From the UHGV virus genome UHGV-1376965: a stretch of 64,000 bases of DNA. One strand, written 5' to 3'. This DNA comes from a virus. The stretch's first letter is position 1. Every line of letters begins with the position of its first letter. Position numbers and translations under genes: made by a program. Positions 11,560 to 60,603 of the stretch are shown one piece after another. A model generated the notes under the pieces. That model saw only the letters and a list, made by a program, of their open reading frames with translations. It was not told where the DNA came from and ran no database searches.

Positions 11560-11576
11560 AATGCTCTAATAAATTT
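11560..11576 (+). promoter_or_regulatory. C1-operator-like 17-mer (AATGCTCTAATAAATTT) upstream of c4-icd-ant
   Basis: 16 of 17 match to ATTGCTCTAATAAATTT, which I recall as the P1 C1 repressor operator consensus. Confidence 0.65.
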
Positions 11577-11762
11577 GTATTTTTAAGTCGCGAATGCTAT
11601 CTTTTCGCATCATATTGACCTTTTAATCGTTCAGGCTTATAGTTCCACCGTCGTAGCAAATTCTGCGACCGGGTTTGACAGCCTGAATGTTAGTGCGGAC
11701 AACCGCAGATTTCCGATATTGCGGTATTTTTGTGTCCGTAAACCGCGTTACGCCCGAATTAT

Positions 11763-11839
11763 GGTGGGGCGTGATGGGGAGGCTTCGGCCTGCTGGTTTC
11801 ACTAACGCCAGTCTGTCAACCCTGTCACGTCCTGCCACC
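11763..11839 (+). ncRNA. c4: c4-like antisense RNA, 77 nt, tRNA-like ends GGTGG...CCACC
   Basis: 77-nt segment with complementary 5' and 3' ends; internal TTCACTAAC and CTGTCAA are complementary to GTTAGTGAGG (icd ribosome-binding site) and TTGACAG just downstream. Confidence 0.6.
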
Positions 11840-11889
11840 TGTTTGACAGCGGGTAGCAGGTTGTTAAACCTGTTAGTGAGGCCGTAACT

Positions 11890-12111
11890 ATGGTTAATGC
11901 CAATCCTTGCACACGCCCAGAATTCATCTGGCGTTTCTATTCCTGTAAAAAACACCACTATCACTTCGTTATCGCAGCAACTGAAGACGAAGCACGCTCT
12001 CAATTGCCTGATGGCCCCTGCATTTTTACTGCCCGTTTTTCTACTAACTCGCGCAATTCACTTAGTTACTGGAACCTCCCCTTCTCTGCCGACGTTCAGG
12101 GGGGTTTATGA
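11890..12111 (+). CDS. icd: Icd-like small protein (interference with cell division)
   Basis: 73-aa ORF directly after c4 whose stop overlaps the ant start; size and position match P1 icd. Confidence 0.65.
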   Translation: MVNANPCTRPEFIWRFYSCKKHHYHFVIAATEDEARSQLPDGPCIFTARFSTNSRNSLSYWNLPFSADVQGGL

Positions 12112-13151
12112 AAAAACCTCTCGTCACCCGTAATGAAATAGCCGAAGCGATCGCTTTGCATACTGCCTGTATGCCGACACGGGAGATCCCCGGCGCAATT
12201 GCTAACTATTTCATGATAACCAGGCGTTTTTATACCCGAACAGATAAGGCTGTGATCAACAGGCTACTGATAGCCGAGATCAGGGATTATTTGATTGAAC
12301 AAGGACGTCTACGTTACGCAACAGTGGCAGCAGAAATAAGAAAGGAGGCACATAGAATGACCGGTAATAATTTGAATGTTGAAAAAACAGCACCTGTTAC
12401 GTCAGCTACGCCAGCACCAGCCGTGAATATCATCCCCAACACCGGAGACACAATCGACAGCCAAACATTGTTGAAGATGGTCAATGAGGCACGCAAGTTA
12501 TGTGGAGAACCAGAGGTTAGAAACAATAAATTCATCGAAAAAATACTCGATGAACTTGAAGGTGAATTTTACACAAAAAGTGCAAAATCCCATGGCACAA
12601 GGGCTGGGCGCTCTTTTGAGGTCATCACCATGACCTACAAACAAGCCCTGCGAGTCGCCGCGCGCGAGTCAAAAGCGGTCCGCCGTTCGCTGATCGACAA
12701 ACTGGAAGAATTGCAGCAGGCAAACTCCCCTGCCCCATCGATCCCCCAAACATTACCAGAAGCTCTACGCCTGGCTGCCGAGTTGGCAGAACAGAAAATG
12801 CAGCTGGAACAACAGCTGGTGGCCGCAGCCCCTAAAGTCGATTTTGCCGACCGGGTATCAGTGGCTAATGGAATCCTGATCGGGAACTTTGCAAAGGTCG
12901 TTGGACTTAAGCAAAACGCCCTTTTCTCATGGTTGCGCCAGAACGGCATTCTCATGGCTTTTGGTGCGCGCAAAAACGTACCGCGCCAGCAGTACATTAA
13001 CGCCGGGTATTTCACGGTGAAAGAAGTGGTGCTGGATGATGAAAATGGCTACCAGATACGGCTGACGCCCCAATTAACGGGTAAAGGCCAGCAGTGGTTA
13101 ACTCGCAAGCTACTTGATGCTGGTTTGTTAAAACCAGTAGCAATAGGTTAA
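12108..13151 (+). CDS. ant1: Antirepressor Ant
   Basis: 347 aa; C-terminal domain (PEALRLAAELAEQK ... GKGQQWL ... LLDAG) is shared with the next gene's C-terminus, the antirepressor-type domain. Confidence 0.8.
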   Translation: MKKPLVTRNEIAEAIALHTACMPTREIPGAIANYFMITRRFYTRTDKAVINRLLIAEIRDYLIEQGRLRYATVAAEIRKEAHRMTGNNLNVEKTAPVTSATPAPAVNIIPNTGDTIDSQTLLKMVNEARKLCGEPEVRNNKFIEKILDELEGEFYTKSAKSHGTRAGRSFEVITMTYKQALRVAARESKAVRRSLIDKLEELQQANSPAPSIPQTLPEALRLAAELAEQKMQLEQQLVAAAPKVDFADRVSVANGILIGNFAKVVGLKQNALFSWLRQNGILMAFGARKNVPRQQYINAGYFTVKEVVLDDENGYQIRLTPQLTGKGQQWLTRKLLDAGLLKPVAIG

Positions 13152-13162
13152 CAAAAGAAAAA

Positions 13163-13190
13163 AACCTGCCAGCAAACTGGCAGGTTTCTG
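13163..13190 (+). terminator. Rho-independent terminator after ant
   Basis: AACCTGCCAGCAAACTGGCAGGTTTCT hairpin. Confidence 0.6.
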
Positions 13191-13229
13191 AGCAGATCGT
13201 CCAACCCGATCTGGATCGAGCCAGAAAAA

Positions 13230-13246
13230 TTTGCTCTAATAAATTT
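13230..13246 (+). promoter_or_regulatory. C1-operator-like 17-mer upstream of kilA-repL
   Basis: TTTGCTCTAATAAATTT, 16 of 17 match. Confidence 0.65.
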
Positions 13247-13315
13247 CGTTTTCTAAGTGCAAAGAATCACCATTTCGAGCTGGTGATTGAAGGTTGATGC
13301 AAATTTGGAGAAAAA

Positions 13316-14116
13316 ATGCAACAAACATTCAATGCGGATATGAATATATCAAACCTTCATCAAAATGTCGATCCTTCAACCACTCTGCCCGTTATTTGTG
13401 GTGTTGAAATTACGACCGACCGCGCTGGCCGTTACAACCTTAATGCTCTACACAGAGCGAGCGGACTCGGTGCCCATAAAGCGCCAGCTCAATGGCTAAG
13501 AACGCTGTCAGCTAAACAGCTCATCGAAGAGCTTGAAAAAGAAACTATGCAGAATTGCATAGTTTCGTTCGAAGGCCGTGGCGGCGGCACTTTTGCCCAT
13601 GAATTGCTCGCTGTGGAGTACGCAGGCTGGATTTCTCCCGCGTTTCGGCTGAAGGTAAACCAGACATTTATCGACTATCGAACCGGAAGATTACAACCTG
13701 CTATTCCGCAGAGTCTCCCTGAAGCTCTCCGTTTGGCTGCCGACCTGGCAGAGCAAAAGCAACGGCTGGAGCAAAAAATGCTTATGGATGCACCTAAAGT
13801 CGAATTCGCTGAACGCGTTGCTACCGCCAGCGGGGTTCTAATCGGCAACTATGCCAAAGTGCTCGGCCTGGGCCAAAACTATCTCTTCACCTGGTTGCGT
13901 GATAACGGAATTCTGATCGCAACCGGTGAACGCAGGAACGTCCCCAAACAAGAATACATATCCCGTGGGTATTTCACCCTTAAAGAAACCGTGATCGATA
14001 CAAGCAATGGAAGCAGGATTTCTTTCACGACTCGTATAACCGGCAAAGGTCAGCAGTGGCTGATGAAGCGATTGCTTGATGCTGGTGTGCTGGTACCTGT
14101 CGCGGCAACGCGCTAA
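13316..14116 (+). CDS. kilA: KilA (KilA-N domain plus antirepressor-like C-terminal domain)
   Basis: 266 aa; N-terminal KilA-N-like segment (GRYNLNALHRA ... GTFAHELLAVEYAGWISP); C-terminus paralogous to Ant. Confidence 0.75.
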   Translation: MQQTFNADMNISNLHQNVDPSTTLPVICGVEITTDRAGRYNLNALHRASGLGAHKAPAQWLRTLSAKQLIEELEKETMQNCIVSFEGRGGGTFAHELLAVEYAGWISPAFRLKVNQTFIDYRTGRLQPAIPQSLPEALRLAADLAEQKQRLEQKMLMDAPKVEFAERVATASGVLIGNYAKVLGLGQNYLFTWLRDNGILIATGERRNVPKQEYISRGYFTLKETVIDTSNGSRISFTTRITGKGQQWLMKRLLDAGVLVPVAATR

Positions 14117-14145
14117 CAGACGTAGTAAGAACCACCAGCATTGTA

Positions 14146-14991
14146 ATGCTGGCTAAAGTCACTTTCCTGAGCTGTATAACGATGAGCGATTTTACTTTTT
14201 CTGGCTATGAATTGGCCTGCTTTGTAACACACTCCGGTCTATCCCGTAGCGCCGGGCATATCCTGTCGCAATGTGCAAATCTCGCGGCAACAACCAGTGA
14301 ATACTTCATTCACAAGCCTCACCGCCTGATCGCGGCAGAAACTGGTTATAGCCAATCAACCGTCGTTCGTGCATTCCGTGAAGCTGTAAACAAAGGAATC
14401 CTGTCTGTAGAGATTGTTATCGGCGATCACCGTGAACGTCGCGCTAACCTGTACCGGTTTACACCATCCTTTTTGGCCTTCGCACAACAAGCCAAAAATG
14501 CGCTGATTGAAAGCAAATTAAAGATCTCTTCAGCGGCAACCAAGGTTAAAGCTGTTCTCGCTAAGACATTGGCTTTATTTAATTTTTTATCCACACCCCC
14601 ATGTCAAAATGATACCCCCTCCCCCTGTCAGGATGACGTGGCAATAAAGAATAAGAAGTCACAAGTTAAAAAAACAAAAAGATCAGTTTCCGGCGGTGCC
14701 GGAACGAGCAGACTCAAAAAATTGACTTCATGGATCGCTGAGACAAAAGCAAAGGCTGACAATCTGCGGTTATCCAAAAAACGCGCACAAAAACATGAGT
14801 TCAAGCAGAAAGTAGAGGCGGCAGCGCGGAAATATGCTTACCTGAAGAACAAGCGTTCTCCTGATATTGGCGGGGTATCAAACTTCGATAATTTGCCGCA
14901 TTGCATGACGGTAAACGAAGCTCTTAATGCGGTTTTAGCCAAAAATAAAGATAACGAAAAATGGGGTATACCGGTAGGATTCAGAGGGTGA
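14146..14991 (+). CDS. repL: Lytic replication initiator RepL
   Basis: 281 aa, directly downstream of kilA; size and order match P1 repL. Confidence 0.7.
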   Translation: MLAKVTFLSCITMSDFTFSGYELACFVTHSGLSRSAGHILSQCANLAATTSEYFIHKPHRLIAAETGYSQSTVVRAFREAVNKGILSVEIVIGDHRERRANLYRFTPSFLAFAQQAKNALIESKLKISSAATKVKAVLAKTLALFNFLSTPPCQNDTPSPCQDDVAIKNKKSQVKKTKRSVSGGAGTSRLKKLTSWIAETKAKADNLRLSKKRAQKHEFKQKVEAAARKYAYLKNKRSPDIGGVSNFDNLPHCMTVNEALNAVLAKNKDNEKWGIPVGFRG

Positions 14992-14994
14992 TAG

Positions 14995-15011
14995 ATTGCT
15001 CTAATTATAAC
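14995..15011 (+). promoter_or_regulatory. Degenerate C1-operator-like 17-mer (ATTGCTCTAATTATAAC)
   Basis: 13 of 17 match to the operator consensus, immediately after the repL stop. Confidence 0.4.
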
Positions 15012-15159
15012 CATGCATACTTTCAACACCTCTAGTTTGCCATGAGGAAAACTCATAGGCGTCCTGGTAAGATGACGTAGTTAGCAAATCAGAACGTCCA
15101 ATTATTGCAATTAATAAACAACTAACGGACAATTCTACCTAACAATAAGTGGAGTTAAC

Positions 15160-15864
15160 ATGTTGAACCGAAGAACATTTAATGTATTCTGCGATGAATC
15201 CTGTCACCTACTAAATGATCATAATAAAGTCATGGTATTGGGTGCGCTTTGGTGTCCTGGCACTATCACAAAAAAAATTGCTAGAGACATCAAGGGATTA
15301 AAATTAAAACACAATTTAAAACCTGATTTCGAAATCAAGTGGACTAAAGTATCTGCGTCCAAAGTTGAATTTTACTTAGAGGTCGTAGATTACTTCTTCA
15401 GCAACCCAGCATTGCGCTTTAGAGGTGTTGTTGTTCCTGATAAAGAGCAACTGGACCATGCTCGATTCCATCAAGATCATAATACTTTCTATTATAAGAT
15501 GTTTTTTTATGTCTTAAAAAACATAATAGAAAGTAACAACACATACAATATCTACCTAGATATAAAAGATACTTTAGGTATTGAAAAAATTGAGAAATTA
15601 AGAGGAGTTCTTCACAATGATCGCTATGATTACAATCATGAGTCGATAAACAGAATTCAACATATACGATCTCATGAAGTGCAACAATTGCAGCTAACGG
15701 ATCTTTTCATTGGTGCGTTAGGCTACGTTCATCGAGGAATGAATAGCAACGCGGGAAAAATCCAAGTCATAAACAGGATAAAATCACATACAAACAGGGA
15801 GTTACTAAAAAGCACTCTTCCAACAGAAAGTAAATTTAATATTTTCGTGTGGGAGGCTCGCTGA
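15160..15864 (+). CDS. DUF3800-like protein (N-terminal FNVFCDES motif)
   Basis: 234 aa; GGAG ribosome-binding site 7 nt upstream; strongly AT-rich; N-terminal D-E-S signature resembles DUF3800. Confidence 0.7.
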   Translation: MLNRRTFNVFCDESCHLLNDHNKVMVLGALWCPGTITKKIARDIKGLKLKHNLKPDFEIKWTKVSASKVEFYLEVVDYFFSNPALRFRGVVVPDKEQLDHARFHQDHNTFYYKMFFYVLKNIIESNNTYNIYLDIKDTLGIEKIEKLRGVLHNDRYDYNHESINRIQHIRSHEVQQLQLTDLFIGALGYVHRGMNSNAGKIQVINRIKSHTNRELLKSTLPTESKFNIFVWEAR

Positions 15865-16328: not shown

Positions 16329-16332
16329 AAAA

Positions 16333-16372
16333 GCTGAACCCGACACATATTGCTATGTATCGGGTTCGATCG
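16333..16372. terminator. Bidirectional hairpin terminator between convergent genes
   Basis: GAACCCGACACAT...ATGTATCGGGTTC stem; T-run on the minus strand. Confidence 0.55.
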
Positions 16373-16494
16373 CTCTTTCTACGCATGGTAGATGAGTAAG
16401 GTAAATCTAACCGATCTACTTTAGCTTTTCAATAGCTAGCTATAACTTTCCGCACATATTCTTCTGATAATTCCAGTATGGCGGTTGGGTTTTC

Positions 16495-16791: not shown

Positions 16792-16835
16792 AATATGCTC
16801 AAAATTTCGCTATACCGGCATAATTTAAGCACAAA

Positions 16836-24634: not shown

Positions 24635-24774
24635 CGAAAGTCATCCTTTATGCTGTATTTTTGAATTTAATTAAAAATGCTGCATAAAATAATAATGTAT
24701 GCGTAGATGCTTGTACATAGCATTCTCTGCATGTTTGGTTCATTTTGCACGATTGAGAGTTACAAGAAAGGCAC

Positions 24775-24800
24775 AAAAAAGCCCCGTTCAGGGGCATCAG
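24775..24800 (-). terminator. Rho-independent terminator after the T5orf172-like gene
   Basis: Minus strand reads GCCCCTGAACGGGGC then TTTTTTG. Confidence 0.7.
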
Positions 24801-24802
24801 TG

Positions 24803-25612
24803 TTATTTGCTAAGAGCAGCGAATAATCGTTCGAAATCGATAGTATCTATAGCACGCGTAAGCGCCGGAAGTTCAGCCTCAAAGTACCCGTGTCGATCGT
24901 AAAAGAAGGGACCGAAGAGCGAGGCATGTTGGATTATACTTCGCCCCAGCCCGGACACACAGTTAAGCCCATTACCGGCTAAAAGGCTAAAAAACTTCTC
25001 TGGATTATCGTGGTAAAGCTGGGAATCAATGGTGGCGGTTAACTCTTCCATAGGGAAGCACACCCGCCCTGTATCCCAGGGATATTTAGTCCGAAGCATA
25101 AACATTGCTTTCAGCAATTCACATTGAGCGAGGATCGCGTCCGGTTCATAGCCAGATATGGAGACATAAGCCACGTCCCTCATTCCTGCGTCATCTTTGA
25201 AAGTCACGATAGAAGTAACATCCAGCTCTTTTTCGAAAGAGCAAGCAGCATCTACTGGACGCTGAAGTAAATCATTCGACTTAATGCGCTCGAGAATCCC
25301 TCCCCACATATCATTTAGATATTCGATATGAGCCAAAACCTTATCAAGACACTCTCGTGTAAACCATTCAGTATGCCCGCCACCGACGCTTTTCTCCCAC
25401 GGCGCATTCCAGGGGAAAAAGGTTGCGTGTAAAGCCCGCTCAAGATTAACCATTGCCAAACGCGTACCACGATAGACCCGTGAAAGCGCAAAATCGGGAC
25501 TCACTTGTAGCCCTTTAAACCGTGCCAATGGACCACATGAAATGCCGATTTTAAAAGTATCTCCGTTCTCTGGCACCAGAACGTAGAGGTAGTGTTGTTT
25601 CTCTTCTTGCAT
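24803..25612 (-). CDS. T5orf172 / GIY-YIG-superfamily domain protein with unknown C-terminal domain
   Basis: 269 aa; N-terminus YLYVLVPENGDTFKIGIS ... GGGHTEWF resembles the T5orf172 family; own terminator; sits between incA iterons and the par promoter. Confidence 0.65.
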   Translation of the reverse strand: MQEEKQHYLYVLVPENGDTFKIGISCGPLARFKGLQVSPDFALSRVYRGTRLAMVNLERALHATFFPWNAPWEKSVGGGHTEWFTRECLDKVLAHIEYLNDMWGGILERIKSNDLLQRPVDAACSFEKELDVTSIVTFKDDAGMRDVAYVSISGYEPDAILAQCELLKAMFMLRTKYPWDTGRVCFPMEELTATIDSQLYHDNPEKFFSLLAGNGLNCVSGLGRSIIQHASLFGPFFYDRHGYFEAELPALTRAIDTIDFERLFAALSK

Positions 25613-25644
25613 ATCAATACCACTGCTTGATGAGAACCGCGCAA

Positions 25645-25896
25645 ATGTTGACTATGCGCGAAGGTTAATGTGAATAGTTGACTATGCGCGATGTGACTAC
25701 AGTCAAAAGTTGACTGTAGTCGATTTAACTCCACCAAAGATCGACTATGTAAGATATTGTCGGGAGAAACGTTGACTATACGCGATGAAATGCCCCTAAA
25801 AGCCATCTCAATAGCGACTTGCAGAATATTGACGCCAGCAAAAATCCACCAGCGTCAACGAATGTCGCCTATAGTCAACTTCTCGCTATCGCATAT
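25645..25896. repeat. incA-like iteron array downstream of repA (about 9 copies, both orientations)
   Basis: Repeated TTGACTATGCGCG / CGCGTATAGTCAA-type units. Confidence 0.8.
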
Positions 25897-25904
25897 AGTC
25901 AATA

Positions 25905-26825
25905 TTATGGATTGCGCTTATGGATCTGGAAGCCGATTTTCCTGCCGTTTTTTATCTCTGAAAATTTAAGATATTCAATAGCTTCCAAATCTTTCATGGC
26001 TTTTCTGATAACGCTATTTTGCACGCTAACGGATGATTTGAGATTAAGCCTCGCTCTAAGGCGCTCAATGCTGACAGGTGCCGGGTTGGCGGGTAGAGCC
26101 TCAAAGAATGTATACAGTACCTTGGCCGTCTCTTTGCGCCCTAGTTTATCCAGCATCTTCAGCTTCAGGATTCGCTTATAGTCAACATAGTAAAGTTCAG
26201 ATAGCTGTTTCTGCGGCTGGATCTCGATAACATCAAGCTCGGTATTCAGGCTGCTATATGCCAACAAGTTGACGTTAATGTTATTGAGATGACCTTTTGC
26301 CGCCGGGAAGCGGAATTTGACAACTGTCTGCTGAATGCGTGTCAGAGAGTCATCAATACTTTTACGGAACGCCTTTGAAAGGCGCTTACGTGGATAGCCG
26401 CATCGATCGGCAAACTCGGAGAATGGCAGGGTGATTATGCCGTCATCATCAGGTGCGTAGTCAAACAACGCGGAGGTTATGCCCACCCACACCTTAAAAT
26501 CAGTATCCATATCCAGGCGTGGACCATGAATTTCAATTCCCTCATAGCCTTCCTGCTCAACAATTTTGAGGCTTGATAGTTCTTCAGTTGCGTTCGTTGT
26601 GTTTGTTGTAACTGACGATCCGCGACGTAGCGCCACATTGGTAGATTTTAAGGTTGGCACAAACACACCTAAGCGCAACAAAGCGATGGGTTGTATAGTG
26701 CTGTTGTTATTGGGCTTCAGGCTGTGGATTTCTCCTGTATTTCCTGCAACTTCTTCAACGCTAAGGAAGCCTTTACTTTCTTCCGGCATCACGGTTTCTC
26801 CATGTGTGGCGCGGCCTGACGTCAA
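25905..26825 (-). CDS. repA: Plasmid replication initiator RepA (P1/RepFIB family); true start may be 26789
   Basis: 306-aa ORF with conserved GPRLDMDTDFKVW segment, flanked by iteron arrays. Confidence 0.85.
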   Translation of the reverse strand: MTSGRATHGETVMPEESKGFLSVEEVAGNTGEIHSLKPNNNSTIQPIALLRLGVFVPTLKSTNVALRRGSSVTTNTTNATEELSSLKIVEQEGYEGIEIHGPRLDMDTDFKVWVGITSALFDYAPDDDGIITLPFSEFADRCGYPRKRLSKAFRKSIDDSLTRIQQTVVKFRFPAAKGHLNNINVNLLAYSSLNTELDVIEIQPQKQLSELYYVDYKRILKLKMLDKLGRKETAKVLYTFFEALPANPAPVSIERLRARLNLKSSVSVQNSVIRKAMKDLEAIEYLKFSEIKNGRKIGFQIHKRNP

Positions 26826-27085
26826 TTTGGATGGCTGTTATCAACAGCTGTGAATATTCAGACTCTAAAATCGCTTACAGTCAATGTTTCTGTCGCGTAT
26901 AGTCAACAATAAATCGCGTGCAGTCAACAATAAATCGTGCACAGTCAACATAAAATCGCGTATAGTCAATGTTGATCCCATTTCAGGCCAGTAATGACGC
27001 GGCTTACAGCGATCCGGGATCTTCTTTGGATCTTCCTAGGTTCTCTTTAGGATCTGTTTATTGGATCTATGCTGTGGATAAGTTG
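26826..27085. other. Plasmid origin region (oriR-like): DnaA-box-like site, five direct iterons (incC-like), GATC cluster
   Basis: TGTTATCAACAG near 26838; five CGCGTATAGTCAAC-type iterons at 26868-26976; at least six GATC sites at 26990-27080. Confidence 0.75.
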
Positions 27086-27780: not shown

Positions 27781-28117
27781 TACCCGCCGCAACCAGTTGT
27801 TTCTGAACTTCAGCTTTTCGTTCCATTTGCCTGTCAGCATATTTGGCTTGTTCTGATTCATTTTTCACTTCCTGGCTGTGAAAATGTTGCTCTGCTTTGT
27901 TCATCGTCTCAATGGTCTGGTTAAGATCCATTATTGACTTATCACGTTCCTTAACAGCCTGATCAAGACTGCCAATTTTCTCCATGGCTTGCTTTAGCTG
28001 ATGACGTTCCCATGCAAACCCAGCACCAACAAGTGCGCAAATCAGAACAAGAACACCAGTAGCAGCAAGTTTCTCCTTCAAAGACAAAGCTGTTTTTAAC
28101 GTAGAAAAGAATGACAT
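27695..28117 (-). CDS. Membrane-anchored coiled-coil protein, i-spanin (Rz)-like
   Basis: N-terminal transmembrane segment then charged coiled coil; AGGAGG ribosome-binding site before the ATG at 28117; 3' end overlaps the lipoprotein gene. Confidence 0.6.
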   Translation of the reverse strand: MSFFSTLKTALSLKEKLAATGVLVLICALVGAGFAWERHQLKQAMEKIGSLDQAVKERDKSIMDLNQTIETMNKAEQHFHSQEVKNESEQAKYADRQMERKAEVQKQLVAAGNVRQRIPADTQRLLRQSISEFNADADKG

Positions 28118-28156
28118 GCCTTCCTCCTGAAGAAAAATTATCAATGAAGTCCTTTG

Positions 28157-51439: not shown

Positions 51440-52170
51440 AATTTTCCAAATTTTCTGAGTTGGTGAATCGTATTTTGTCCAACAACCACAGCCATCGTCG
51501 CGATATGGATGTAACAATCGTTGTTCATTCGCCTGGCAGCATTGGTTCAACACCTTCAGTTGAGGTTCAGTCAATTCACGCTGGTTTTGATTGGGATTCC
51601 GGGAAAGTGCTTATTTTCCCATCACAGCCACTGACCACGCTAACACCAGAACAGATTACTGATATCACTGATAGTGTGCGCAAAGGTCAGTCTTGGCACG
51701 CATATCAGGAATACAAGAAGCATCAAGAGCAGTTGGAAAAATTGTCGATTGAACTGGATGCCGCAAAACAGCGCATTGCAGAGCTGGAGGGTAATCGCAC
51801 GGCGCTGGCAGTGGAGAATGAGCTGGCTCGTAAGGCAGTTCAGGCATTCTGCGATGTTGTTGGCGACAACACCGAGGTTATCGCTGAGGTGGTTGGGCGA
51901 GATGGCGTTCTGGTTATTTTGGAGGCCATGAAGGCAACAGGAAATATGCCAGCCACCGATGCTTTCCTGGCTGAAGTGCGGGCGCAGGGGGTGGATGCTG
52001 CTATAGAAGCTGCAAAAAATCTGGTGGCCCAAGAATATGAGTATAAGGATTTCAAAGCGGCGCAGAGTGATTGCTGTATGTACCCTGGTTCAGACCTGGT
52101 AGGGAAGGTTGAAATGACTGAGTGGTTAGTTGACTTTGCTGCCCAGCTTCGCAAAGGAGGCAACCAGTGA
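51436..52170 (+). CDS. Ea22-like modular protein, paralog
   Basis: Shares the ATDAFLAEVRA block and coiled segment with 50448..51152. Confidence 0.5.
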   Translation: MKFSKFSELVNRILSNNHSHRRDMDVTIVVHSPGSIGSTPSVEVQSIHAGFDWDSGKVLIFPSQPLTTLTPEQITDITDSVRKGQSWHAYQEYKKHQEQLEKLSIELDAAKQRIAELEGNRTALAVENELARKAVQAFCDVVGDNTEVIAEVVGRDGVLVILEAMKATGNMPATDAFLAEVRAQGVDAAIEAAKNLVAQEYEYKDFKAAQSDCCMYPGSDLVGKVEMTEWLVDFAAQLRKGGNQ

Positions 52171-52919
52171 GCGAAATTAATTACCAGGCACTGCGTGAGG
52201 TGGCGGAACGTGCAATTCCAGCAATGGAACGCCTGTTAATGTTGCCAGCTGATGATGATTTGTTAAGTGAACAGGAACTTAAAGATTACGGTGTGGATAT
52301 TGATGCGCTCAACGCCTTCAAATTTCTGGCCGGACCAGAAACCGTGCTGGCGCTTCTGGATGAACGGGAAAGAAACCAGCAATACATCAAACGCCGCGAC
52401 CAGGAGAACGAGGAAATTGCGCTAACGGTAGGGAAGCTGAGAGTTGAGCTTGAGGAAGTAAAACAACACGCTGAAGAATTATCCGAAACCAAGGCTGTTC
52501 GTAACCAATGGCGGCCAGATATTTGCCCAATAACCGGACGTGCATTTTTCATGTGGATTGAGCATCCAACATTGGGAAATGTGCCGACATATGGTGGCCC
52601 ATTAGATAGTTACACCATTCCAACAAAGGACGGTGACGGTGAGTTTTCATGTGAGCGTTACGATCATGATTTTGGCGGTTGGGTAGAAAGCGAATGTCTT
52701 GGGTTATATCTGATTGATGATAGAGAACAATGCAGGGTCTACGAACTGGAGGAACGCGTTAAGGAACTGGATGCTCGGGAAATATCGCTCCCGGAACGTA
52801 GCAGCATGCTTCATCGAACAGATTTTCACGATGATTACCAAACGGTAATGGCATACAAAGTTTCTGAAGTCATCGATGCAATCCGCGCCGCAGGCATTCG
52901 CATCAAAGGAGGTGAGTAA
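52167..52919 (+). CDS. Hypothetical protein with Ea22-like N-terminus
   Basis: N-terminal EINYQALREVAERA shared with the paralogs; overlap-coupled. Confidence 0.5.
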   Translation: MSEINYQALREVAERAIPAMERLLMLPADDDLLSEQELKDYGVDIDALNAFKFLAGPETVLALLDERERNQQYIKRRDQENEEIALTVGKLRVELEEVKQHAEELSETKAVRNQWRPDICPITGRAFFMWIEHPTLGNVPTYGGPLDSYTIPTKDGDGEFSCERYDHDFGGWVESECLGLYLIDDREQCRVYELEERVKELDAREISLPERSSMLHRTDFHDDYQTVMAYKVSEVIDAIRAAGIRIKGGE

Positions 52920-53264
52920 TGCGTGTGGCATGTATCGGCTTGTTACCGTACCCGACTCGTTTTTGGGCTTCTGCGCTAATTGCAAAGCCGTATGTCCTGA
53001 TGGCTGACAACATCATCCCGGCACCAAAGCGCCGCCATACCGGTATTGCAGCGGCACGACGAGCAGCAAAGAGACGCAGGAGAGCAAAGCGATGAAAAAC
53101 CGTAAGGCAAAACGACTTTTTTTACAGCGACCTGTGCGTGTGGTGGAGCTGGTTATTAGCAACCATAAGATAGCGGTACTCCATCCATTTGGTCAGGTGG
53201 CTTTTGCCGCAAAGCGTAAGCCTACTGCGTCACAGAACAGGCGGAAGAAAGGGTACGCTGTAAG

Positions 53265-53453
53265 ATGAAAAACCGTAAAGCAAAGATTCTGTTAGTTCGT
53301 AGAAACGCTCCTGGCGTCTGGCAGTGGGTGAGACTCAGCAACCGACGGATGGGGTTGATGAAATATTACGGGATGATGGATTGTGGTTTTTGCAAAAAGC
53401 CCAGCGCGGCGCAAAACCGCTGGAAAAACCACTTGCGCACTAAAGGAGAGTGA
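53265..53453 (+). CDS. Small basic protein, one of two tandem MKNRKAK paralogs (the other at about 53092..53268)
   Basis: Both begin MKNRKAK and are Arg/Lys-rich. Confidence 0.35.
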   Translation: MKNRKAKILLVRRNAPGVWQWVRLSNRRMGLMKYYGMMDCGFCKKPSAAQNRWKNHLRTKGE

Positions 53454-53454
53454 T

Positions 53455-53970
53455 ATGGCGTTAACACACCGCGAACTCTGTCAGATTGCGTATAAGTTCC
53501 TTAAGCGCAACGGGTTCAAGGTTTGTTTTCATGACCGCTTTATAGCTGTAACCAGTACCGGAGAACAGCCAGATGCTATGGGATTCAGAAATTCAGCATC
53601 ATGCCTGATAGAGGCGAAGTGTTCTCGTGCTGACTTGTTGGCAGATAGAAAAAAGCGTTTTCGTAAAAATCCGTCTCTTGGAATGGGCGACTGGCGATTC
53701 TTTATTAGTGAGCCGGGAATTATTTCAATTGAGGATTTACCACCTGGCTGGGGATTACTTCACGTTGTTAACGGAAGAGTACGGAAAGTACATGGGTGGC
53801 CCAAGGGTAATTGCTGTTGGGGTAATCCTGACGATAAGCCATTTACTGGAAATAAGCAGGTTGAATGCGATTACATGTTATCTGCATTAAGGCGAATGGA
53901 GTTGAGAGGGCACCTTAATGAAATATATGACGGTGTAATTGTTAATAAGAAAGAAGGAAACGCGGCATGA
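53455..53970 (+). CDS. Hypothetical protein, possible PD-(D/E)XK-like fold
   Basis: AAAGGAGA ribosome-binding site; D ... E-A-K pattern (DAMGF ... CLIEAKC). Confidence 0.45.
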   Translation: MALTHRELCQIAYKFLKRNGFKVCFHDRFIAVTSTGEQPDAMGFRNSASCLIEAKCSRADLLADRKKRFRKNPSLGMGDWRFFISEPGIISIEDLPPGWGLLHVVNGRVRKVHGWPKGNCCWGNPDDKPFTGNKQVECDYMLSALRRMELRGHLNEIYDGVIVNKKEGNAA

Positions 53971-54788
53971 CCACTATTACCAAAGAGCGACTGCTGACAA
54001 TCAAGCAGTGGCGCGAAACATACGGACCTGGTAGCAACGTTGTACTGCCAGCAGAAGAAGCGGAAGAACTGGCACGAATTGCTCTGGCATCGTTGGCAGC
54101 AGAGTCTGTGTCAGTAAACGACGACATGGCTTACGCATTCCATCATGCACTGTCAGATTCATCTCTAGGTGCTGATGAGGTAGAGGAAATTAAGACTGGG
54201 TTGCGTGCTGCCTTTGCCAACGTCACTATCCAACCAGAGCCGGTAGTGCCGGATGAAATCGCGTTAGCAATTGAAAATCTTAAGCAGAAGTTAGTGGAAT
54301 GCAATCGCTATAACTACTGTGCAGATGCAGTTAAAGGCGTAGAGGATGCCTGCCGTGCTGTTAGCTATAGCCAAGCCGACAATCAGCCAGCATCTGGCAA
54401 CCAGGCTGCCGAATCCAATCGCGATAATGAGTGGACTGGCAATCCTGATATTGATAACGCCATCATCATGCTCGACCGCATAGATACGCTGGAAAATTGC
54501 GATGATGACCGTATTGAGGCTGTTAAGGCTGTTTTGCGTAGACTGGCTGGCAACTATCCGGTAATTCCGGATGGTTGGATAAGCTGTAGTGAGCGAATGC
54601 CTGAGAACATTCCCGGAAGTTGTAAAGAGTATCTGGTGTTTGATGGGCTTAATAATAAAGTTCATCACGATTACTGGGTTGTCCCTGATGGAGACAGTGC
54701 GCCAGTTGCGTCGTTCTGGAATCATTACGGGGCACATGTAACTCACTGGATGCCTCTACCAGAACCGCCGCAGGAGGTGAATCAATGA
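53967..54788 (+). CDS. DUF551-like domain protein
   Basis: C-terminal LVFDG ... HYGAHVTHWMPLPEPP typical of DUF551 phage proteins. Confidence 0.55.
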   Translation: MTTITKERLLTIKQWRETYGPGSNVVLPAEEAEELARIALASLAAESVSVNDDMAYAFHHALSDSSLGADEVEEIKTGLRAAFANVTIQPEPVVPDEIALAIENLKQKLVECNRYNYCADAVKGVEDACRAVSYSQADNQPASGNQAAESNRDNEWTGNPDIDNAIIMLDRIDTLENCDDDRIEAVKAVLRRLAGNYPVIPDGWISCSERMPENIPGSCKEYLVFDGLNNKVHHDYWVVPDGDSAPVASFWNHYGAHVTHWMPLPEPPQEVNQ

Positions 54789-54870
54789 GCTGGCCTGAAG
54801 CATTCACCACGGTAGGAATTGTGATGGCGGCAGCACTGGGTTTGTATTCAATTTGTCGCTGGTGGTAACG

Positions 54871-55104
54871 ATGGGAAAAATAACTTTTGTAGTCGAATTT
54901 GAGGATGGCAAAGAGCCACCTGTTAGCGCCAATCTTGATGTTGCTGGTGGCAGGCTTGTTTCGGTTCTATTTGGTGACTACCGAGATGACTTCTTCCAAC
55001 CAGAAGAAGTTGATGTAGTGCGAGAGGCATTAAACGAGTTAAGTGTTGATAACGATGATGCTCATGCGGAAATCATCCAAAAAATGGAACTGCTAACTCA
55101 CTAA
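54871..55104 (+). CDS. Small acidic hypothetical protein
   Basis: About 77 aa from MGKITFVVEFEDG. Confidence 0.4.
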   Translation: MGKITFVVEFEDGKEPPVSANLDVAGGRLVSVLFGDYRDDFFQPEEVDVVREALNELSVDNDDAHAEIIQKMELLTH

Positions 55105-55282
55105 ATTATCAATTATGGTGCTATCACCTACGACACCGAGAGAAAATTTATAATGTCAAAAGTAAATGTTTTGATTTTTTCAGCAATTGTTGGCTTTGGT
55201 TTTACTGCCGGAGTGCAGATTTATATTACGTGGGAAAAAATCATCAACTACGCATGGAGTTGTTTTATTAAGTGAGGTAAGT

Positions 55283-55576
55283 ATGTGGAGAGGTAATAGT
55301 CATGGCAAAAGCCAGATGATACTTACCGAATATCAGTTTGACCATAAAACCAATAAATCACGTTCAGTATATTTGCTTCGGCACAATAGCCGCGTAAGGA
55401 ATACCGTGCTGGAGCAAAATCTGACTGTTGAAATAGATAATTACGGGGGCTTCAAGCCAACAATTTCGCTTGATGATTTTCCTCGTGGTTTAAGCGAAAG
55501 AGAAGCAATGCTGAAATTAGCAGAATGGCTACAAAGATTAAGCATTGCTATTGAAGATAACTGGTCTGAACCTTAA
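55283..55576 (+). CDS. Hypothetical protein
   Basis: About 97 aa from MWRGNSHGK; AT-rich. Confidence 0.4.
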   Translation: MWRGNSHGKSQMILTEYQFDHKTNKSRSVYLLRHNSRVRNTVLEQNLTVEIDNYGGFKPTISLDDFPRGLSEREAMLKLAEWLQRLSIAIEDNWSEP

Positions 55577-55582
55577 ATTTAT

Positions 55583-55957
55583 ATGATGACACTAAAACAT
55601 TTTCTTGACCGCCCATTATGGGCGGCAGCCGCAGGCTATGACTTTAATTATATGGATTGCATGTCTTATACCGCCAATGCATACGACTATTCCTTCAGTC
55701 TGCTGCTTAATTCTTTAAGAATATTGCCGCAAACAGAAGTTGGAGAGCTTCATTTATGGCTATTGGGCTTTATCGCGGCTGGAGTTGGTATTGCTGTATG
55801 GCCTTTTATTTTCTGGCTGGTGGCTGTTGTAGTGTGGTTTAAGTGCAAGACGTACCGGAGAAAGTATTTCTTAGGTGATGGAATGACTGATATTGCCAAA
55901 ATGAACATTGAAAAATGGACTAAGGAATGTGAAAAGAAATGGCGCAAAAAGAAATGA
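55583..55957 (+). CDS. Membrane protein
   Basis: 124 aa with a long hydrophobic stretch (LWLLGFIAAGVGIAVWPFIFWLVAVVVWF). Confidence 0.5.
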   Translation: MMTLKHFLDRPLWAAAAGYDFNYMDCMSYTANAYDYSFSLLLNSLRILPQTEVGELHLWLLGFIAAGVGIAVWPFIFWLVAVVVWFKCKTYRRKYFLGDGMTDIAKMNIEKWTKECEKKWRKKK

Positions 55958-56871
55958 CCAGAATCACTGAAGAGCGTATATCAGAGATTATTTCCCGTAT
56001 CGAAATGTATGGTCACGGTGCTGGATATACGGCAGATGAAGTATTGGCACTTGCCCAAATGGCTTTGGCGGCTTGCAAAGATGATAAAAAAATGAAGTTT
56101 ATCGACTTGTTAGTGAAGGAACTGCCTAAGTGCGGCGGGTGGCCTGATGGAATGAGTTATTGTTACCTACCCAGTGTCAATTTAATGGCACCATGCGCGA
56201 CTTTTGCTTTTGGCTCAGACCACAAAAAAGACACTTTCTTTGGGCGCAATTTTTGTTGTGAGATTGAGCTTCCAATTGGTGACCTTGATAGCGATGAATA
56301 CCAGTCAGTTGTCACTCGCGAACAATACGAATCAGCTCTCATAGCGTCGCAGAAAGTCGAGTTCAATGGTGATGAACTTGAAAGTAAGACTTACAGGTTG
56401 GATTTTGGGCAATGGCTGGAACAGCAACGCGGGAAAATCGATGTGGACTGTGGTTGTGTGTCCACTGAAACATTCATGCACTGGCTGCGGGTAGCTTACG
56501 AGGCTGGCAACTATCCGGATATTCCGGATAGTTCGGTGCCAGCACCAGGAAAGGGCGTCACCGGTGAACGTATCCGAATTAAGCCGCATGTTTATCGCGA
56601 ACTGGTTAACCGTCTCCACGATACAGCGATCAAGTGTGCTGGCACCCAGCAATTACGAGAAAGAATTAGCCGTGTTTTGGGCGACGTTATTACACCAGAT
56701 CATCATAAACAAGCCGAGAAAAGTGGCCTGGAAAGGTGTCACCTTGAGGCGGCATTAAACATTAAGCCGGGGCATACGCTTGGCATTATTGATGCACTAT
56801 TGGTTCATAAGATGGCCAGGGCTTTATTGCCGCTGGTGGATGCTGGCGATACAAGCGAGGGTGAAGTATGA
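55939..56871 (+). CDS. Hypothetical protein
   Basis: 310-aa ORF, overlap-coupled. Confidence 0.5.
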   Translation: MAQKEMTRITEERISEIISRIEMYGHGAGYTADEVLALAQMALAACKDDKKMKFIDLLVKELPKCGGWPDGMSYCYLPSVNLMAPCATFAFGSDHKKDTFFGRNFCCEIELPIGDLDSDEYQSVVTREQYESALIASQKVEFNGDELESKTYRLDFGQWLEQQRGKIDVDCGCVSTETFMHWLRVAYEAGNYPDIPDSSVPAPGKGVTGERIRIKPHVYRELVNRLHDTAIKCAGTQQLRERISRVLGDVITPDHHKQAEKSGLERCHLEAALNIKPGHTLGIIDALLVHKMARALLPLVDAGDTSEGEV

Positions 56872-57230
56872 GAGTTGCAGATCACATCAAACACCTTGAA
56901 AGAATTATCGAAAACGGTGAACTCTTAAGAGATCAGATGAGACGCACGGCAGAAGTCAGAGAGGCGATAATCCGCAGTCAGGCTGGTAAATTAAAGCAAT
57001 TATCAGAGATTAACGCGCTATACAAGAACAGACGTAACCGGGCGGCGCTGCGGCTTCAGAAAGCACGTAATGAAATTAAATTGGTGGAGGCAAAACTGAA
57101 AAAACAGATTCAGCGTTACGATCAGCAAGATGCTTTTTATGCCGCCATCAAGGCGGCTGCTAATGAAATAGGCATCTGGAAGTTGCTGGTGGAGAAAGCA
57201 AAGACGAAGTTAAATGCCAACGAAAGCTGA
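56868..57230 (+). CDS. Coiled-coil hypothetical protein
   Basis: 120 aa, charged helical. Confidence 0.5.
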   Translation: MRVADHIKHLERIIENGELLRDQMRRTAEVREAIIRSQAGKLKQLSEINALYKNRRNRAALRLQKARNEIKLVEAKLKKQIQRYDQQDAFYAAIKAAANEIGIWKLLVEKAKTKLNANES

Positions 57231-57295
57231 ACTACAGGTACCCACCAGCACATACAGAAAATGATTGTTTCCACATCAAGGAGATTTTAATGTTT

Positions 57296-57433
57296 CACTG
57301 AACATTAAGTAAGCCAGTGCATAATTCCATTTTTTACTGACCTTAAAAGCAAAATCAAAACGATGATGAGGATGATCGCCAGAATCTGGCTAATAACAGG
57401 CGCATCTAAAAATGCACTCAGGAACTGAAAAAA
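57296..57433 (-). CDS. 45-aa hydrophobic peptide, convergent with the upstream operon
   Basis: MTAFFQFLSAFLDAPVISQILAIILIIVLILLLRSVKNGIMHWLT; below the ORF-track cutoff. Confidence 0.35.
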
Positions 57434-57894
57434 AGCAGTCATTAAGGTGGTTCCTTGTCAAATGTAAAGGAGCACTTGCTCACGTTGACGTAGAAACCCA
57501 ACCCCTATATAGTTGGATTCGGTGAAAGAAAGTCGTTAACGTGAGCTTACGGCACATGTTTTCGGAACAACATCAGGGAACGGCTAATTCCTTGATGCGG
57601 ATGGGGTCTGTAATGCAGACCCTATCTATTAACGTCATGATTGCATCTCAAATTTTCTCCTTATCTTCATTAATCAAAATTCATTTCATTTGTGAAACAT
57701 CACAATATTTAGAAAATGGCCCTCTTGCAAGTGCATAACTTTGTGGATAAATCAGGAAGAAAAAAGTTGATTCTGCGCACGGCAAGGCAGATAAGCTGTG
57801 CACAAAAATCAATGGGAAAAGAAAAAAAATTAAAAGTTACTTTGCTGGTTAAATAATAGTCGTTACGCAATTGTTCTGGATGGGATTTGATATG

Positions 57895-58143
57895 CACGAT
57901 TGGAATATTGCAGCTAAAAGTCAGGAAGAACGGGATAAGGTTAACGTTGATCTGGCTGCCAGCGGTGTGGCGTACAAAGAGCGATTGAACATACCTGTCA
58001 TAGCTGAACAGGTAGCCCGCGAGCAACCAGAGAATCTGCGCACCTATTTCATGGAACGGTTACGGCACTATCGGCAGTTAAGCCTCCAGTTGCCAAAAGG
58101 GAGCGATCCGGTGTATCAGAACGAGGATGCACCAAAAAAATAA
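57895..58143 (+). CDS. hot: Homolog of DNA polymerase III theta subunit (HolE-like)
   Basis: [39 protein letters not shown] closely parallels E. coli theta. Confidence 0.8.
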
Positions 58144-58228
58144 CGGCAAGATGGGGGAGAAATGTGATTAGCCCCCAGCGTGGCGCGCCTACAAACCCCG
58201 CTTTCACAAACTATGCCTTTTCAATGTA

Positions 58229-58248
58229 TACTGTATGAATAAACAGTA
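58229..58248 (+). promoter_or_regulatory. LexA box (SOS operator) upstream of humD
   Basis: TACTGTATGAATAAACAGTA matches CTGT-N8-ACAG. Confidence 0.8.
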
Positions 58249-58266
58249 TCATTGAGGTAAAACGCT

Positions 58267-58656
58267 ATGGGCTTCCCTTCTCCTGCGGCGGATTATGTTG
58301 AAAGCCGAATTTCTCTTGATCAGCAGATAATTAGACATCCTTCAGCGACCTACTTCATGCGGGCAGCTGATAGCCATCACCGTGAGGGAATATTGCAGGG
58401 TGCTTTGCTGGTGGTTGATTCCTCGCTTACTCCGGTTGATGGTTCTCTGCTTGTGTGCGCTATGGAGGGTGAATATCGCATAAAGAGATACAGGAAGTAT
58501 CCGCGCCAGCACCTGGAGGATTTAAGCACCGGGAAGAAAGAGGCGTTACCAGTAGATGACGATGGATACACGGGCAGTAATGCTGTTTTTGGTGTGATCA
58601 CTCATGTCATCAATGATGCCCGAAGTGGGGAATTTGATGATTGTCCGGTTATTTAA
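58267..58656 (+). CDS. humD: UmuD'-like protein (pre-processed UmuD homolog)
   Basis: GFPSPAADYVE ... HPSATYF ... S-K dyad region; lacks the UmuD N-terminal 24 aa. Confidence 0.85.
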   Translation: MGFPSPAADYVESRISLDQQIIRHPSATYFMRAADSHHREGILQGALLVVDSSLTPVDGSLLVCAMEGEYRIKRYRKYPRQHLEDLSTGKKEALPVDDDGYTGSNAVFGVITHVINDARSGEFDDCPVI

Positions 58657-58728
58657 GCTGCAAAGTGCTGGTGCTTTATGCCTGTGAAGTTTATAATTGT
58701 GTACACATAACGAGTACACGAGGTGTTT

Positions 58729-58950
58729 ATGCAATCCATTAACTTCCGTACCGCGCGTGGCAACCTTTCTGAAGTGCTCAACAATGTTGAAGCCGGGGAA
58801 GAGGTTGAAATCACCCGCAGAGGCCGTGAGCCAGCAGTAATTGTCAGCAAGGCTACTTTCGAAGCCTACAAAAAAGCGGCGCTGGATGCTGAATTTGCAT
58901 CCCTGTTTGACACCCTGGACTCCACCAACAAGGAACTGGTTAACCGATAA
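58729..58950 (+). CDS. phd: Phd antitoxin
   Basis: [39 protein letters not shown] matches my recollection of P1 Phd. Confidence 0.9.
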
Positions 58951-59330
58951 TGAGGCATATATCACCGGAAGAACTTATTGCGCTTCATGATGCGAATATA
59001 AGCCGCTACGGCGGCCTGCCGGGAATGTCTGATCCGGGTAGGGCAGAGGCCATTATCGGGAGAGTTCAGGCCAGAGTTGCCTACGAAGAGATCACCGACC
59101 TTTTCGAAGTCTCCGCCACCTACCTGGTGGCTACAGCGAGAGGGCATATATTCAATGATGCCAATAAGCGTACCGCGCTAAACAGTGCGCTGCTATTTCT
59201 ACGCCGTAACGGGGTGCAGGTATTTGATTCACCTGAACTGGCAGACCTTACTGTAGGCGCTGCGACTGGCGAGATATCTGTATCTTCTGTCGCCGACACG
59301 TTACGTAGATTGTATGGTTCTGCGGAGTAG
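58950..59330 (+). CDS. doc: Doc toxin (Fic-fold kinase)
   Basis: 126 aa; Fic-like [11 protein letters not shown]; start overlaps the phd stop. Confidence 0.9.
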
Positions 59331-59334
59331 ATTA

Positions 59335-59514
59335 ATGGCACGCAAATACAACAAATTGTCCCGTGAAGCGTTAAAGATGCTTCTTGATGGCGTGAGTCGC
59401 CGCAAGGTAAAGCAATACCTGGTTGGTAAGCAAATTGGAGTCAGGACCGCTATTGCTGTGTTATGCCGTCAGGAAATGGTTGTGCTTAAACAGAGAATGC
59501 CGGGCAGCAGATAA
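59335..59514 (+). CDS. Small basic protein
   Basis: About 59 aa from MARKYNKLSREALKM. Confidence 0.4.
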   Translation: MARKYNKLSREALKMLLDGVSRRKVKQYLVGKQIGVRTAIAVLCRQEMVVLKQRMPGSR

Positions 59515-59541
59515 AGCCCAATCAGTGATTAAAGGTGTGAT

Positions 59542-60585
59542 GTGAAAGCCGTAATTACTCCCTTTGTACAGAAAGAGCTTGGCCTCGCCACGTTCAAAGT
59601 GGATCAGGAGGTCAGAAAGCTGGTGGAGGCTGGCCGTAAATTTATTATGGAGCCGGTGCCGCGTGAGTTAATCGAGCACATGGAAGACGGCCTCGTTGTT
59701 ACCGAGCAAACCATGGCAACAAATGAGGCGTTGCAGCCGTTTTTTAACAGCGATGAACTGTTTCGCCGTATTGGTGGAATTGACGCGCTGGTGGCGTGGT
59801 TGCGTAGGAAAGAGGGTCAATGCCAGGCCGCAGATCGTAGTTGGTGTGACAACCATATTGTCCACGCTGAACGAGACAATAGCGCGGTGTTGTTGTGCTG
59901 GCATCACGATAACCATTACCGGATGCGTGGTTTTAATGAGCTGAAAGAAACGCTGCACAATAATCGCGTTAACTGGATACTGGATGTCGCCCGTCAGGAA
60001 ATGGGCCTTTCAAATAGCCATGATTTAAGTATTCAGGAGCTGTGCTGGTGGGCTTTCATGCGCAACATGATGCACCTGATGCCGGAAGAAGTCTGCCGCA
60101 TATCAATAAATAAGATGAAGGCTACTCCGCAGGATAGCGGACCTCTGAAAGAGGCGGATATTCGCCCGTATGACGATCGCGCTACAGCATATGTTCAGAT
60201 GATGGAAGAACGCGCCGCGCCGATGCGTGCAAAAGTATGCCCTGTGGATGTTGACGCCGACCCTGGCATGGCGCATTTCAAAATACCAAAACTTCAATCG
60301 CTAAAATTGCCCGAGTACATGGATTTTGTGGCTTCCCGTCCATGCTGTGGCTGTGGAGCTGCGGGAGCTGGCGCTCACATTACGCCTTATATCGTTCGTC
60401 ATAGTCGATTATGCGCGCATGACATTTATGCTGTTCCTCTGTGCCAGTCATGCCAGCGTGATATTGAGCGTGACCGCGATAATTGGGAGAAGACGCACGG
60501 TAGGCTGGCGATGCATCAACGATTGTTCTTTGATTACGCGCTTGGAGTCGGCGCTATCACAAGTCATTCGTCGAGCGTTAGATAA
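59542..60585 (+). CDS. Hypothetical Cys-rich protein
   Basis: 347 aa; GTG start after AAAGGTG; multiple Cys pairs in the C-terminal third. Confidence 0.5.
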
Positions 60586-60586
60586 A

Positions 60587-60603
60587 ATTGCTCTAATGTA
60601 TTG
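60587..60603 (+). promoter_or_regulatory. C1-operator-like 17-mer upstream of the late activator gene
   Basis: ATTGCTCTAATGTATTG, 14 of 17. Confidence 0.5.

Follow-up and report, generated by a model that had tools for sequence, protein, structure and literature searches.

A 17-bp motif recurs across the 64,000-nt stretch of the UHGV virus genome UHGV-1376965 analysed here (hereafter, the window), and two of its copies stand in inverted orientation around a hairpin at 46654-46719. The locus raises two questions: whether the dispersed copies are the operators of one repressor, as an original prediction made from the sequence had proposed, and what the hairpin between the inverted pair might do. 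We found that the copies are very likely the operators of the C1 repressor of phage P1, 12 of the approximately 22 reported for P1. We lean towards reading the hairpin as an intrinsic terminator that would close the pmgN-pmgQ operon while lying inside the C1-repressed promoter region of pmgR-pmgS. By nucleotide comparison, the window is a P1-type temperate phage-plasmid (Punavirus). Direct BLAST aligned it in colinear blocks, at 93-99% identity, to positions 37095-93316 of P1 (AF234172), a span bounded on the P1 map by the tail-fibre gene S region and the 3' end of c1, and megablast of two stretches of the window against a phage collection returned P1, P7, RCS47, SJ46, and other Punavirus at 97-99%.

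The dispersed motif and the C1 operators of P1

The C1 operator of P1 has been described as an asymmetric 17-bp site with the consensus ATTGCTCTAATAAATTT, present as 22 operators dispersed over the phage, and this consensus has served in experiments to titrate C1 (2021 mBio, PMC8546580). Allowing at most three mismatches, ATTGCTCTAATAAATTT was matched 10 times in the window, while 0.34 matches were expected from dinucleotide shuffles; none of 100 shuffles reached 10 matches, and the shuffle maximum was 3. These ten sites start at 11560, 13230, 29320, 32596 (perfect), 46654, 48795, and 60587 on the plus strand, and at 32607, 43030, and 46703 on the minus strand. A weaker site at 14995, ATTGCTCTAATTATAAC, carries five mismatches with its 11-nt core exact. 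Together with a minus-strand site, CATGCACTAATTAATTT, at 43937-43953, there are 12 sites in all, with 0-5 mismatches to the consensus. The core TGCWCTAAT is kept in 11 of them and takes the form TACACTAAT in the remaining one, Op72b. This 9-mer core occurs 12 times in the window versus 1.2 expected, with 11 occurrences in operators and one, which is the chance level, in a coding region. The whole-window scan proposed by the original prediction was performed with a weight matrix trained solely on four P1 operators not contained in the window (Op99a, c, d, and e), and its top ten were the same ten sites. The 12 sites are given here under their P1 names:

11560-11576, plus strand: Op51 (Oc4), AATGCTCTAATAAATTT; overlaps the P2c4 -35 box; c4-icd-ant immunity I operon
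13230-13246, plus strand: Op53 (OrepL), TTTGCTCTAATAAATTT; overlaps the PkilA -10 box; precedes kilA-repL (lytic replication)
14995-15011, plus strand: Op55 (Orlf), ATTGCTCTAATTATAAC; weak; 3 nt past the repL stop and 148 nt upstream of rlfA
29320-29336, plus strand: Op68 (Odmt), ATTGCTCTAATAAATAT; abuts the Pdmt -35 box; uhr-hrdC-dmt
32596-32612, plus strand: Op72a (Obana), perfect consensus; left half of the bivalent Op72ab over the ban promoters
32607-32623, minus strand: Op72b (Obanb), ATTACACTAATAAATTT; inverted overlapping half of Op72ab
43030-43046, minus strand: Op82 (O26), ATTGCACTAATAATTTT; divergent region between gene 26 (minus) and pmgL (plus)
43937-43953, minus strand: Op83 (Oppp), CATGCACTAATTAATTT; flanked by the pmgM stop (43930) and the pmgN start (43997)
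46654-46670, plus strand: Op86a (OpmgRa; Op(sht[a]) in P7), ATTGCTCTAATAATTCC; its TTGCTC is the predicted PpmgR -35 box
46703-46719, minus strand: Op86b (OpmgRb; Op(sht[b]) in P7), ATTGCTCTAATAAAAAA; leaves 14 nt to the pmgR ATG (46734)
48795-48811, plus strand: Op88 (OpmgT), ATTGCTCTAATAAATCT; overlaps the last base of the pap stop
60587-60603, plus strand: Op94 (Olpa), ATTGCTCTAATGTATTG; overlaps the Plpa -35 box; precedes lpa, the late-promoter activator

In AF234172, each of the 12 has its counterpart in a protein_bind feature annotated "phage repressor C1", the 17-mer being identical and the position matching, and the P7 record AF503408 likewise annotates the Op86 pair. Compared with the two reference records, the 17-mers, orthologous positions, orientation, flanking genes, and consensus are the same, and no operator difference was found. 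The nine places listed in the original prediction are all real and correspond base for base to annotated P1 C1 operators, including its reversed near-copy near 43031, which lies at 43030-43046 on the minus strand. Its matching of the motif to the C1 operator of P1 was exact, both for the consensus as published (PMC8546580) and for the sites as they stand in AF234172. Two further operators were absent from its list, one at 32607-32623, overlapping the perfect copy, and one at 43937-43953, both on the minus strand.

The motif contains a -35-like TTGCTC hexamer and a -10-like TCTAAT hexamer, as would be expected if it were a shared promoter element or a chance AT-rich repeat and no repressor operator. 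We consider this explanation extremely improbable given the approximately 30-fold enrichment over shuffles, the identity of every site to a C1-binding annotation in P1 and P7, and the experimental use of the consensus to titrate C1 (PMC8546580). The identification is tempered by the fact that operator function is carried over from annotation and literature, while the analysis itself shows identity of sequence and of position.

The C1 operators of P1 have been mapped since the late 1980s, and binding of C1 at most of these sites was demonstrated decades ago. The operator set is therefore already known, and the finding of the motif is correct but ordinary. Its discovery value is small, the set being annotated in the reference genomes; its calibration value is that a real and coherent regulon was recognised and named from sequence alone, and its practical value is the annotation of a P1-like phage-plasmid.

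The cognate repressor gene lies at the end of the window, which holds its 27 C-terminal codons, with the remainder past the edge:

63915-64000, minus strand: 3' end of c1; last 27 codons, identical to P1 C1; the gene is cut by the window edge

The complete P1 protein (283 amino acids; c1 at 9235-10083 on the minus strand of P1) gave no significant match in Pfam and no sequence relative among PDB chains, and the DNA-binding fold of C1 is not identifiable by sequence with these searches.

Following the textbook mechanism of P1 immunity C, C1 bound at each site in a lysogen would occlude the overlapping or adjacent sigma-70 promoter. It would thereby keep off the antirepressor operon of immunity I (Op51), replication in the lytic cycle (Op53), dmt (Op68), the operon of the ban helicase (Op72ab), several operons for early and morphogenetic functions (Op82, Op83, Op86, and Op88), and lpa (Op94), whose product activates all late promoters. 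Lxc is the corepressor of C1, and Coi and Ant1/2 are antirepressors (PMC8546580); Lxc would aid C1 at these sites, while Coi and Ant1/2 would counter it. The proposal that a single repressor governs the motif thus stands, as the sites are C1 operators throughout, with the caveat that C1 works with these helpers and against these antagonists. Lambda CI at OR and OL is comparable in that one lysogeny repressor holds lytic functions off; there the sites are clustered at two operator regions, whereas the C1 sites of P1 are asymmetric, mostly single, and distributed genome-wide.

Placement of the operators

Operator bases are overwhelmingly non-coding (193 of 204), with the remaining 11 touching coding sequence: Op72a covers the last 10 nt of dmt, and Op88 covers 1 nt of the pap stop codon. 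All other operators sit between intact genes, and every flanking gene is intact. A similar distribution was observed in Cronobacter phage JK004, a relative approximately 71% identical over the Op86 region compared, where the matrix gave 20 sites at 12 bits or more and 19 of the 20 fell in the non-coding fraction, 10% of the genome by its annotation. The original prediction would have been undermined by a motif equally frequent in coding or shuffled sequence; the excess over shuffles and the mostly non-coding placement in both genomes are the opposite of this. Its statement that the sites are always intergenic holds for nearly all operator bases and fails at the dmt end and the pap stop. Likewise, its statement that they lie upstream of operons holds for most sites, with Op55, located just behind repL, and Op82 and Op83, both inverted relative to the downstream plus-strand genes, as exceptions.

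The overlaps of operators with -35 and -10 boxes refer to annotated or predicted boxes transferred from P1. Op55 is the exception here as well; no promoter overlaps it, and the nearest predicted promoter is 94 nt downstream. Op51 lies between simA (minus strand, 11332-11490) and icd (11890), and Rfam matches for the C4 antisense RNA and for its a1b1 targets lie just 3' of it. The operator core ATTGCTCTAAT (for example, at 32596-32612) holds TGnTCTAAT, which is near an extended -10 element (TGnTATAAT), in addition to the -35-like TTGCTC. Such mimicry of promoter elements by the operator may explain why the P1 annotators placed it at the -35 box in some promoters and at the -10 box in others.

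Two further operator-like candidates were rejected. The 17-mer ATTGCATTAATAATCCT at 37151-37167 (minus strand), at the ban/dbn junction, lies in coding sequence, and its position 7 is T, whereas all 16 P1 operators used in matrix building carry C there. P1 has the same 17-mer without annotation, and the site is probably non-functional. The minus-strand match at 34589-34605 has the 9-mer core with a low score; it falls inside the open reading frame (ORF) of an SPFH lipoprotein and represents the single match expected by chance.

A terminator-like hairpin overlapping Op86b

The pmgQ stop codon, TAA, occupies 46650-46652, and Op86a starts 1 nt past it. An 8-nt spacer, ATATTTTT, separates the end of the Op86a 17-mer from the stem of a hairpin on the same strand, 26 nt past the pmgQ stop:

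46679-46708, plus strand: terminator-like hairpin, AAAACGTGATG-TACACT-CATCACGTTTT, running into T6 (46703-46708)

Its 5' arm, AAAACGTGATG, spans 46679-46689 and its 3' arm, CATCACGTTTT, spans 46696-46706, giving an 11-bp stem with the 6-nt loop TACACT. The stem is followed by TT and then ATTAGAGCAAT up to 46719, ahead of pmgR. The A6 tail of Op86b is the T6 run as read on the plus strand, and the last four stem bases also lie inside Op86b. The inverted pair flanking a hairpin and T run that the original prediction described is thus confirmed, with the addition that the T run and the end of the stem are part of the second operator. Folding gave -13.4 kcal/mol for the inner hairpin (z = -5.2) and -26.9 kcal/mol for the whole unit (z = -6.3). 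The whole 66-bp unit is an imperfect palindrome with near-equal folds on the two strands, -26.9 kcal/mol on the plus strand and -25.9 kcal/mol on the minus strand. At 46679-46708 we found the sequence features of a Rho-independent terminator: a stem-loop, a U6 tract, and a position downstream of a gene end. A separate hairpin scan found no operator-terminator fusion in the window besides that at Op86b.

The P1 and P7 records list Op86a and Op86b as two monovalent operators controlling pmgR-pmgS (sht), and neither the P1 record (AF234172) nor the P7 record (AF503408) has a terminator feature between pmgQ and pmgR. The bivalent arrangement, in which inverted 17-mers are offset by 11 bp over approximately 28 bp, was found in the window only at 32596/32607 (Op72ab). 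Like Op72ab and Op99ab, Op86a and Op86b form an inverted pair serving one promoter region; the halves of those bivalent operators overlap at the 11-bp offset, whereas the Op86 halves have starts (and centres) 49 bp apart, are monovalent, and enclose an RNA hairpin. Of the two products of the operon that they control, PmgR (72 amino acids, 46734-46952; ShtA in P7) had no significant Pfam match, nor did PmgS (420 amino acids, 46954-48216; ShtB in P7), for which only a sub-threshold coiled-coil-like match was seen.

Conservation of the Op86 unit

Approximately 690 plasmid records and 20 phage records contain the Op86 region, nearly all at more than 96% identity. Two divergent lineages were found, JK004 and a group of Salmonella plasmids including CP146848 and CP009570, and a four-way alignment of the window, JK004, and two Salmonella plasmids therefore represents three lineages. 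Both Op86 operator cores are exact in all four sequences, and the alignment also keeps the 12-nt distance from the 13-nt operator arm to the stem, as well as the T6 run. Stem pairing is intact in 44 of 44 pair-cells. Two of the pairs, 46684/46701 and 46687/46698, show compensatory changes (G-C to A-U, and A-U to G-C), and three show one-sided changes to G·U. The one-sided changes occur in JK004 and in one Salmonella plasmid, and each gives G·U on the plus strand and C·A on the minus strand, which argues for selection on a plus-strand RNA, as for a terminator, more than for a DNA cruciform or an element on the minus strand. Among the P1-like contigs, the commonest stem polymorphisms, A-to-G changes in two A-U pairs, permit G·U pairing, and disruptive ones are rare.

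This pattern bears on two alternatives in which the hairpin does not act as RNA. The inner palindrome could be a DNA-level element, such as a cruciform or the site of another dimeric protein, or an accident of the inverted operators, and the near-equal folding of the 66-bp unit on both strands is what such an element would show. We find this improbable, since the one-sided changes pair on the plus strand only, the T6 run follows the stem on the plus strand only, the element sits right after a plus-strand stop codon, and JK004 has a second fusion of hairpin, U tract, and operator with an unrelated stem. There is an equally slim chance that the hairpin is incidental to looping, with C1 proteins on Op86a and Op86b making contact and looping out the intervening 32 bp. 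The sites are indeed inverted, their spacing is conserved in the three lineages, and Heinzel and co-workers reportedly described C1 looping at the Op99 operators upstream of c1 (J Biol Chem, 1994). However, 49 bp from centre to centre is far under the persistence length and sterically awkward, the approximately 4.7 helical turns would put the sites on different faces, and the P1 and P7 records list two monovalent operators. The G·U-type and compensatory stem changes also point to a plus-strand RNA structure and not to spacer length alone.

The second fusion in JK004 is located at 13242-13258, between a bplB-like gene and the next gene. It is not homologous to the Op86 unit and consists of a 13-bp hairpin, a U7 tract, and an inverted ATTGCTCTAATAAAAAA with an A6 tail. 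The two cases suggest, from their sequences, that the overlap of terminator and operator is a recurring design in P1-like phages that is selected and not accidental.

Additional Op86 lineages were searched for in viral and genome contigs, and none beyond the three was found in either set. A PmgS-based locus search of viral contigs gave 80 P1 loci, all near-identical, while a pattern scan of the viral contigs turned up at least 120 loci that were identical with few exceptions; the three loci found with a variant pattern were all of the Salmonella type. The pattern scan of genome contigs (596 Gb) returned two Escherichia loci and two chance palindromes in metagenome-assembled genomes (MAGs) of Bacteroidota, at 29-80 in a Chitinophagaceae MAG and at 7761-7821 in a Paludibacteraceae MAG; approximately one such match is expected in 596 Gb. 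The Chitinophagaceae palindrome is perfect and terminator-like and shares the 11-nt arms TGCTCTAATAA / TTATTAGAGCA.

Proposed termination and repression at Op86

If the hairpin is a terminator, as we think somewhat probable, the hairpin and U6 would end transcripts arriving from the upstream pmgN-pmgQ operon, whose own control in the P1 record consists of Op83 and a late promoter. The C1-controlled promoter PpmgR, whose -35 box is covered by Op86a, would then re-initiate transcription for pmgR-pmgS. With the -10 box annotated in P1 (46678-46683), the start falls in the hairpin loop, so that transcripts from PpmgR would not include the 5' arm and would avoid termination. Using the same -10 box, Op86b would lie at about +13 to +29 and form a second block. 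The two operators would repress jointly, through occlusion and through a roadblock further downstream; the terminator U tract would at the same time be the degenerate 3' end of Op86b. The original prediction had suggested either looping or combined termination and repression at 46654-46720, and the latter fits both the anatomy and the conservation of the unit.

A larger claim is that Op86a, the hairpin, and Op86b form a conserved composite "terminator-operator" module. Here, the repressor site would supply the U tract, the embedded promoter, starting inside the hairpin, would be immune to termination, and a bound C1 roadblock could raise the termination of upstream read-through in lysogens. 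This we offer tentatively and hold to be rather doubtful.

When compared with enterobacterial Rho-independent terminators, the Op86 hairpin is alike in its stem-loop with U6, its place after a stop codon, and its compensatory conservation. It differs in three respects: the stem is AU-rich, the U tract is at the same time the 3' end of an opposite-strand operator, and the 5' arm shares sequence with the -10 and start region predicted for the promoter that follows.

Several observations weigh against the terminator reading or against its being new. Only 4 of the 11 stem pairs are G-C, and the stability is only moderate. Neither the hairpin nor PpmgR was flagged by a simple promoter and terminator scan of the window, the hairpin probably because its stem extends into the T run. 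The shuffle control for covariation was weak, with 38 of 500 shuffles reaching the observed value, because only three lineages are present in the collections searched. PpmgR itself is only predicted; its -10 box, TAAAAC, is weak and is not conserved in JK004 (TGAAGC), so the start could lie upstream of the hairpin and make the hairpin a leader attenuator. Finally, the embedded terminator may already be listed for P1: Rho-independent terminators are among the "known P1 genetic features" mapped in the P1 transcriptome paper (PMC8201110). That P1vir paper does not mention pmgR, pmgS, or pmgQ, and a literature search for Op86 and other operator names returned unrelated papers only, the P1 genome paper being outside its reach.

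The attenuator was considered further. Here, transcription would start just 3' of Op86a, through the extended -10-like TGcTCTAAT, so that the pmgR-pmgS transcript would carry the terminator and would require antitermination or read-through. The operator core TGnTCTAAT is close to the extended -10 consensus, the annotated PkilA -10 box lies inside Op53, and the annotated PpmgR -10 box has the weakness described above. An extended -10 promoter needs no good -35 box, yet nothing supports the use of one at Op86, and the P1 annotators put the -35 box inside the operator here, as at P1ban and P2pmgT. To our knowledge, there is no antiterminator for the pmgR-pmgS operon. We regard the attenuator as unlikely, and an intrinsic terminator closing pmgN-pmgQ as the better account of the hairpin. 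The only possible addition that this locus makes to what is known of P1 is the operator-terminator overlap and its conservation, a modest and testable addition to the P1 transcription map.

Departures from P1 within the window

The C1 operator set inside the window is kept complete despite a replicon and cargo that differ from those of P1. Four departures were observed:

5167-5773: within sit
24736-26987: replicon
approximately 33527-35426: tci region
49082-56496: 7.4-kb block behind Op88

Compared with P1, the cargo differs in a RepFIB-type replicon, an SPFH lipoprotein instead of tciABC, and the block behind Op88. The replicon at 24736-26987 is not the IncY repA/incA of P1 and is instead of the "RepFIB replication protein A" type, with 98-99.8% identity to phi456, SJ46, JL22, and a Punavirus record from a human infant. 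At 34337-35426, an ORF (34580-35407, plus strand) with a lipoprotein-like signal peptide stands where P1 has tciA-tciB-tciC; a "putative SPFH domain protein" is named in related records, somewhere under the match at 28000-36000.

The block at 49082-56496 (approximately 7.4 kb) has no P1 counterpart and substitutes for the middle of the P1 pmgT-pmgU region, directly 3' of Op88, which therefore heads a mosaic gene block here and not the pmgT-pmgU arrangement of P1. It holds approximately 10 ORFs on one strand, among them one for a PAPS-reductase-like protein, two for Ead/Ea22-like proteins, and one for a DUF551 protein, and in parts it matches Stx-converting lambdoid phages at 97% identity. The block is probably a variable cargo region under C1 control. 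If the promoter arrangement at Op88 is the same as in P1, this lambdoid-type block would fall under lysogenic repression.

A strong GC-rich hairpin (approximately -19 kcal/mol) was also observed at 13160-13189, 9 nt past the ant stop and approximately 40 nt upstream of Op53. It was reported on the minus strand, where a T run follows, and may serve to terminate the immunity I operon.

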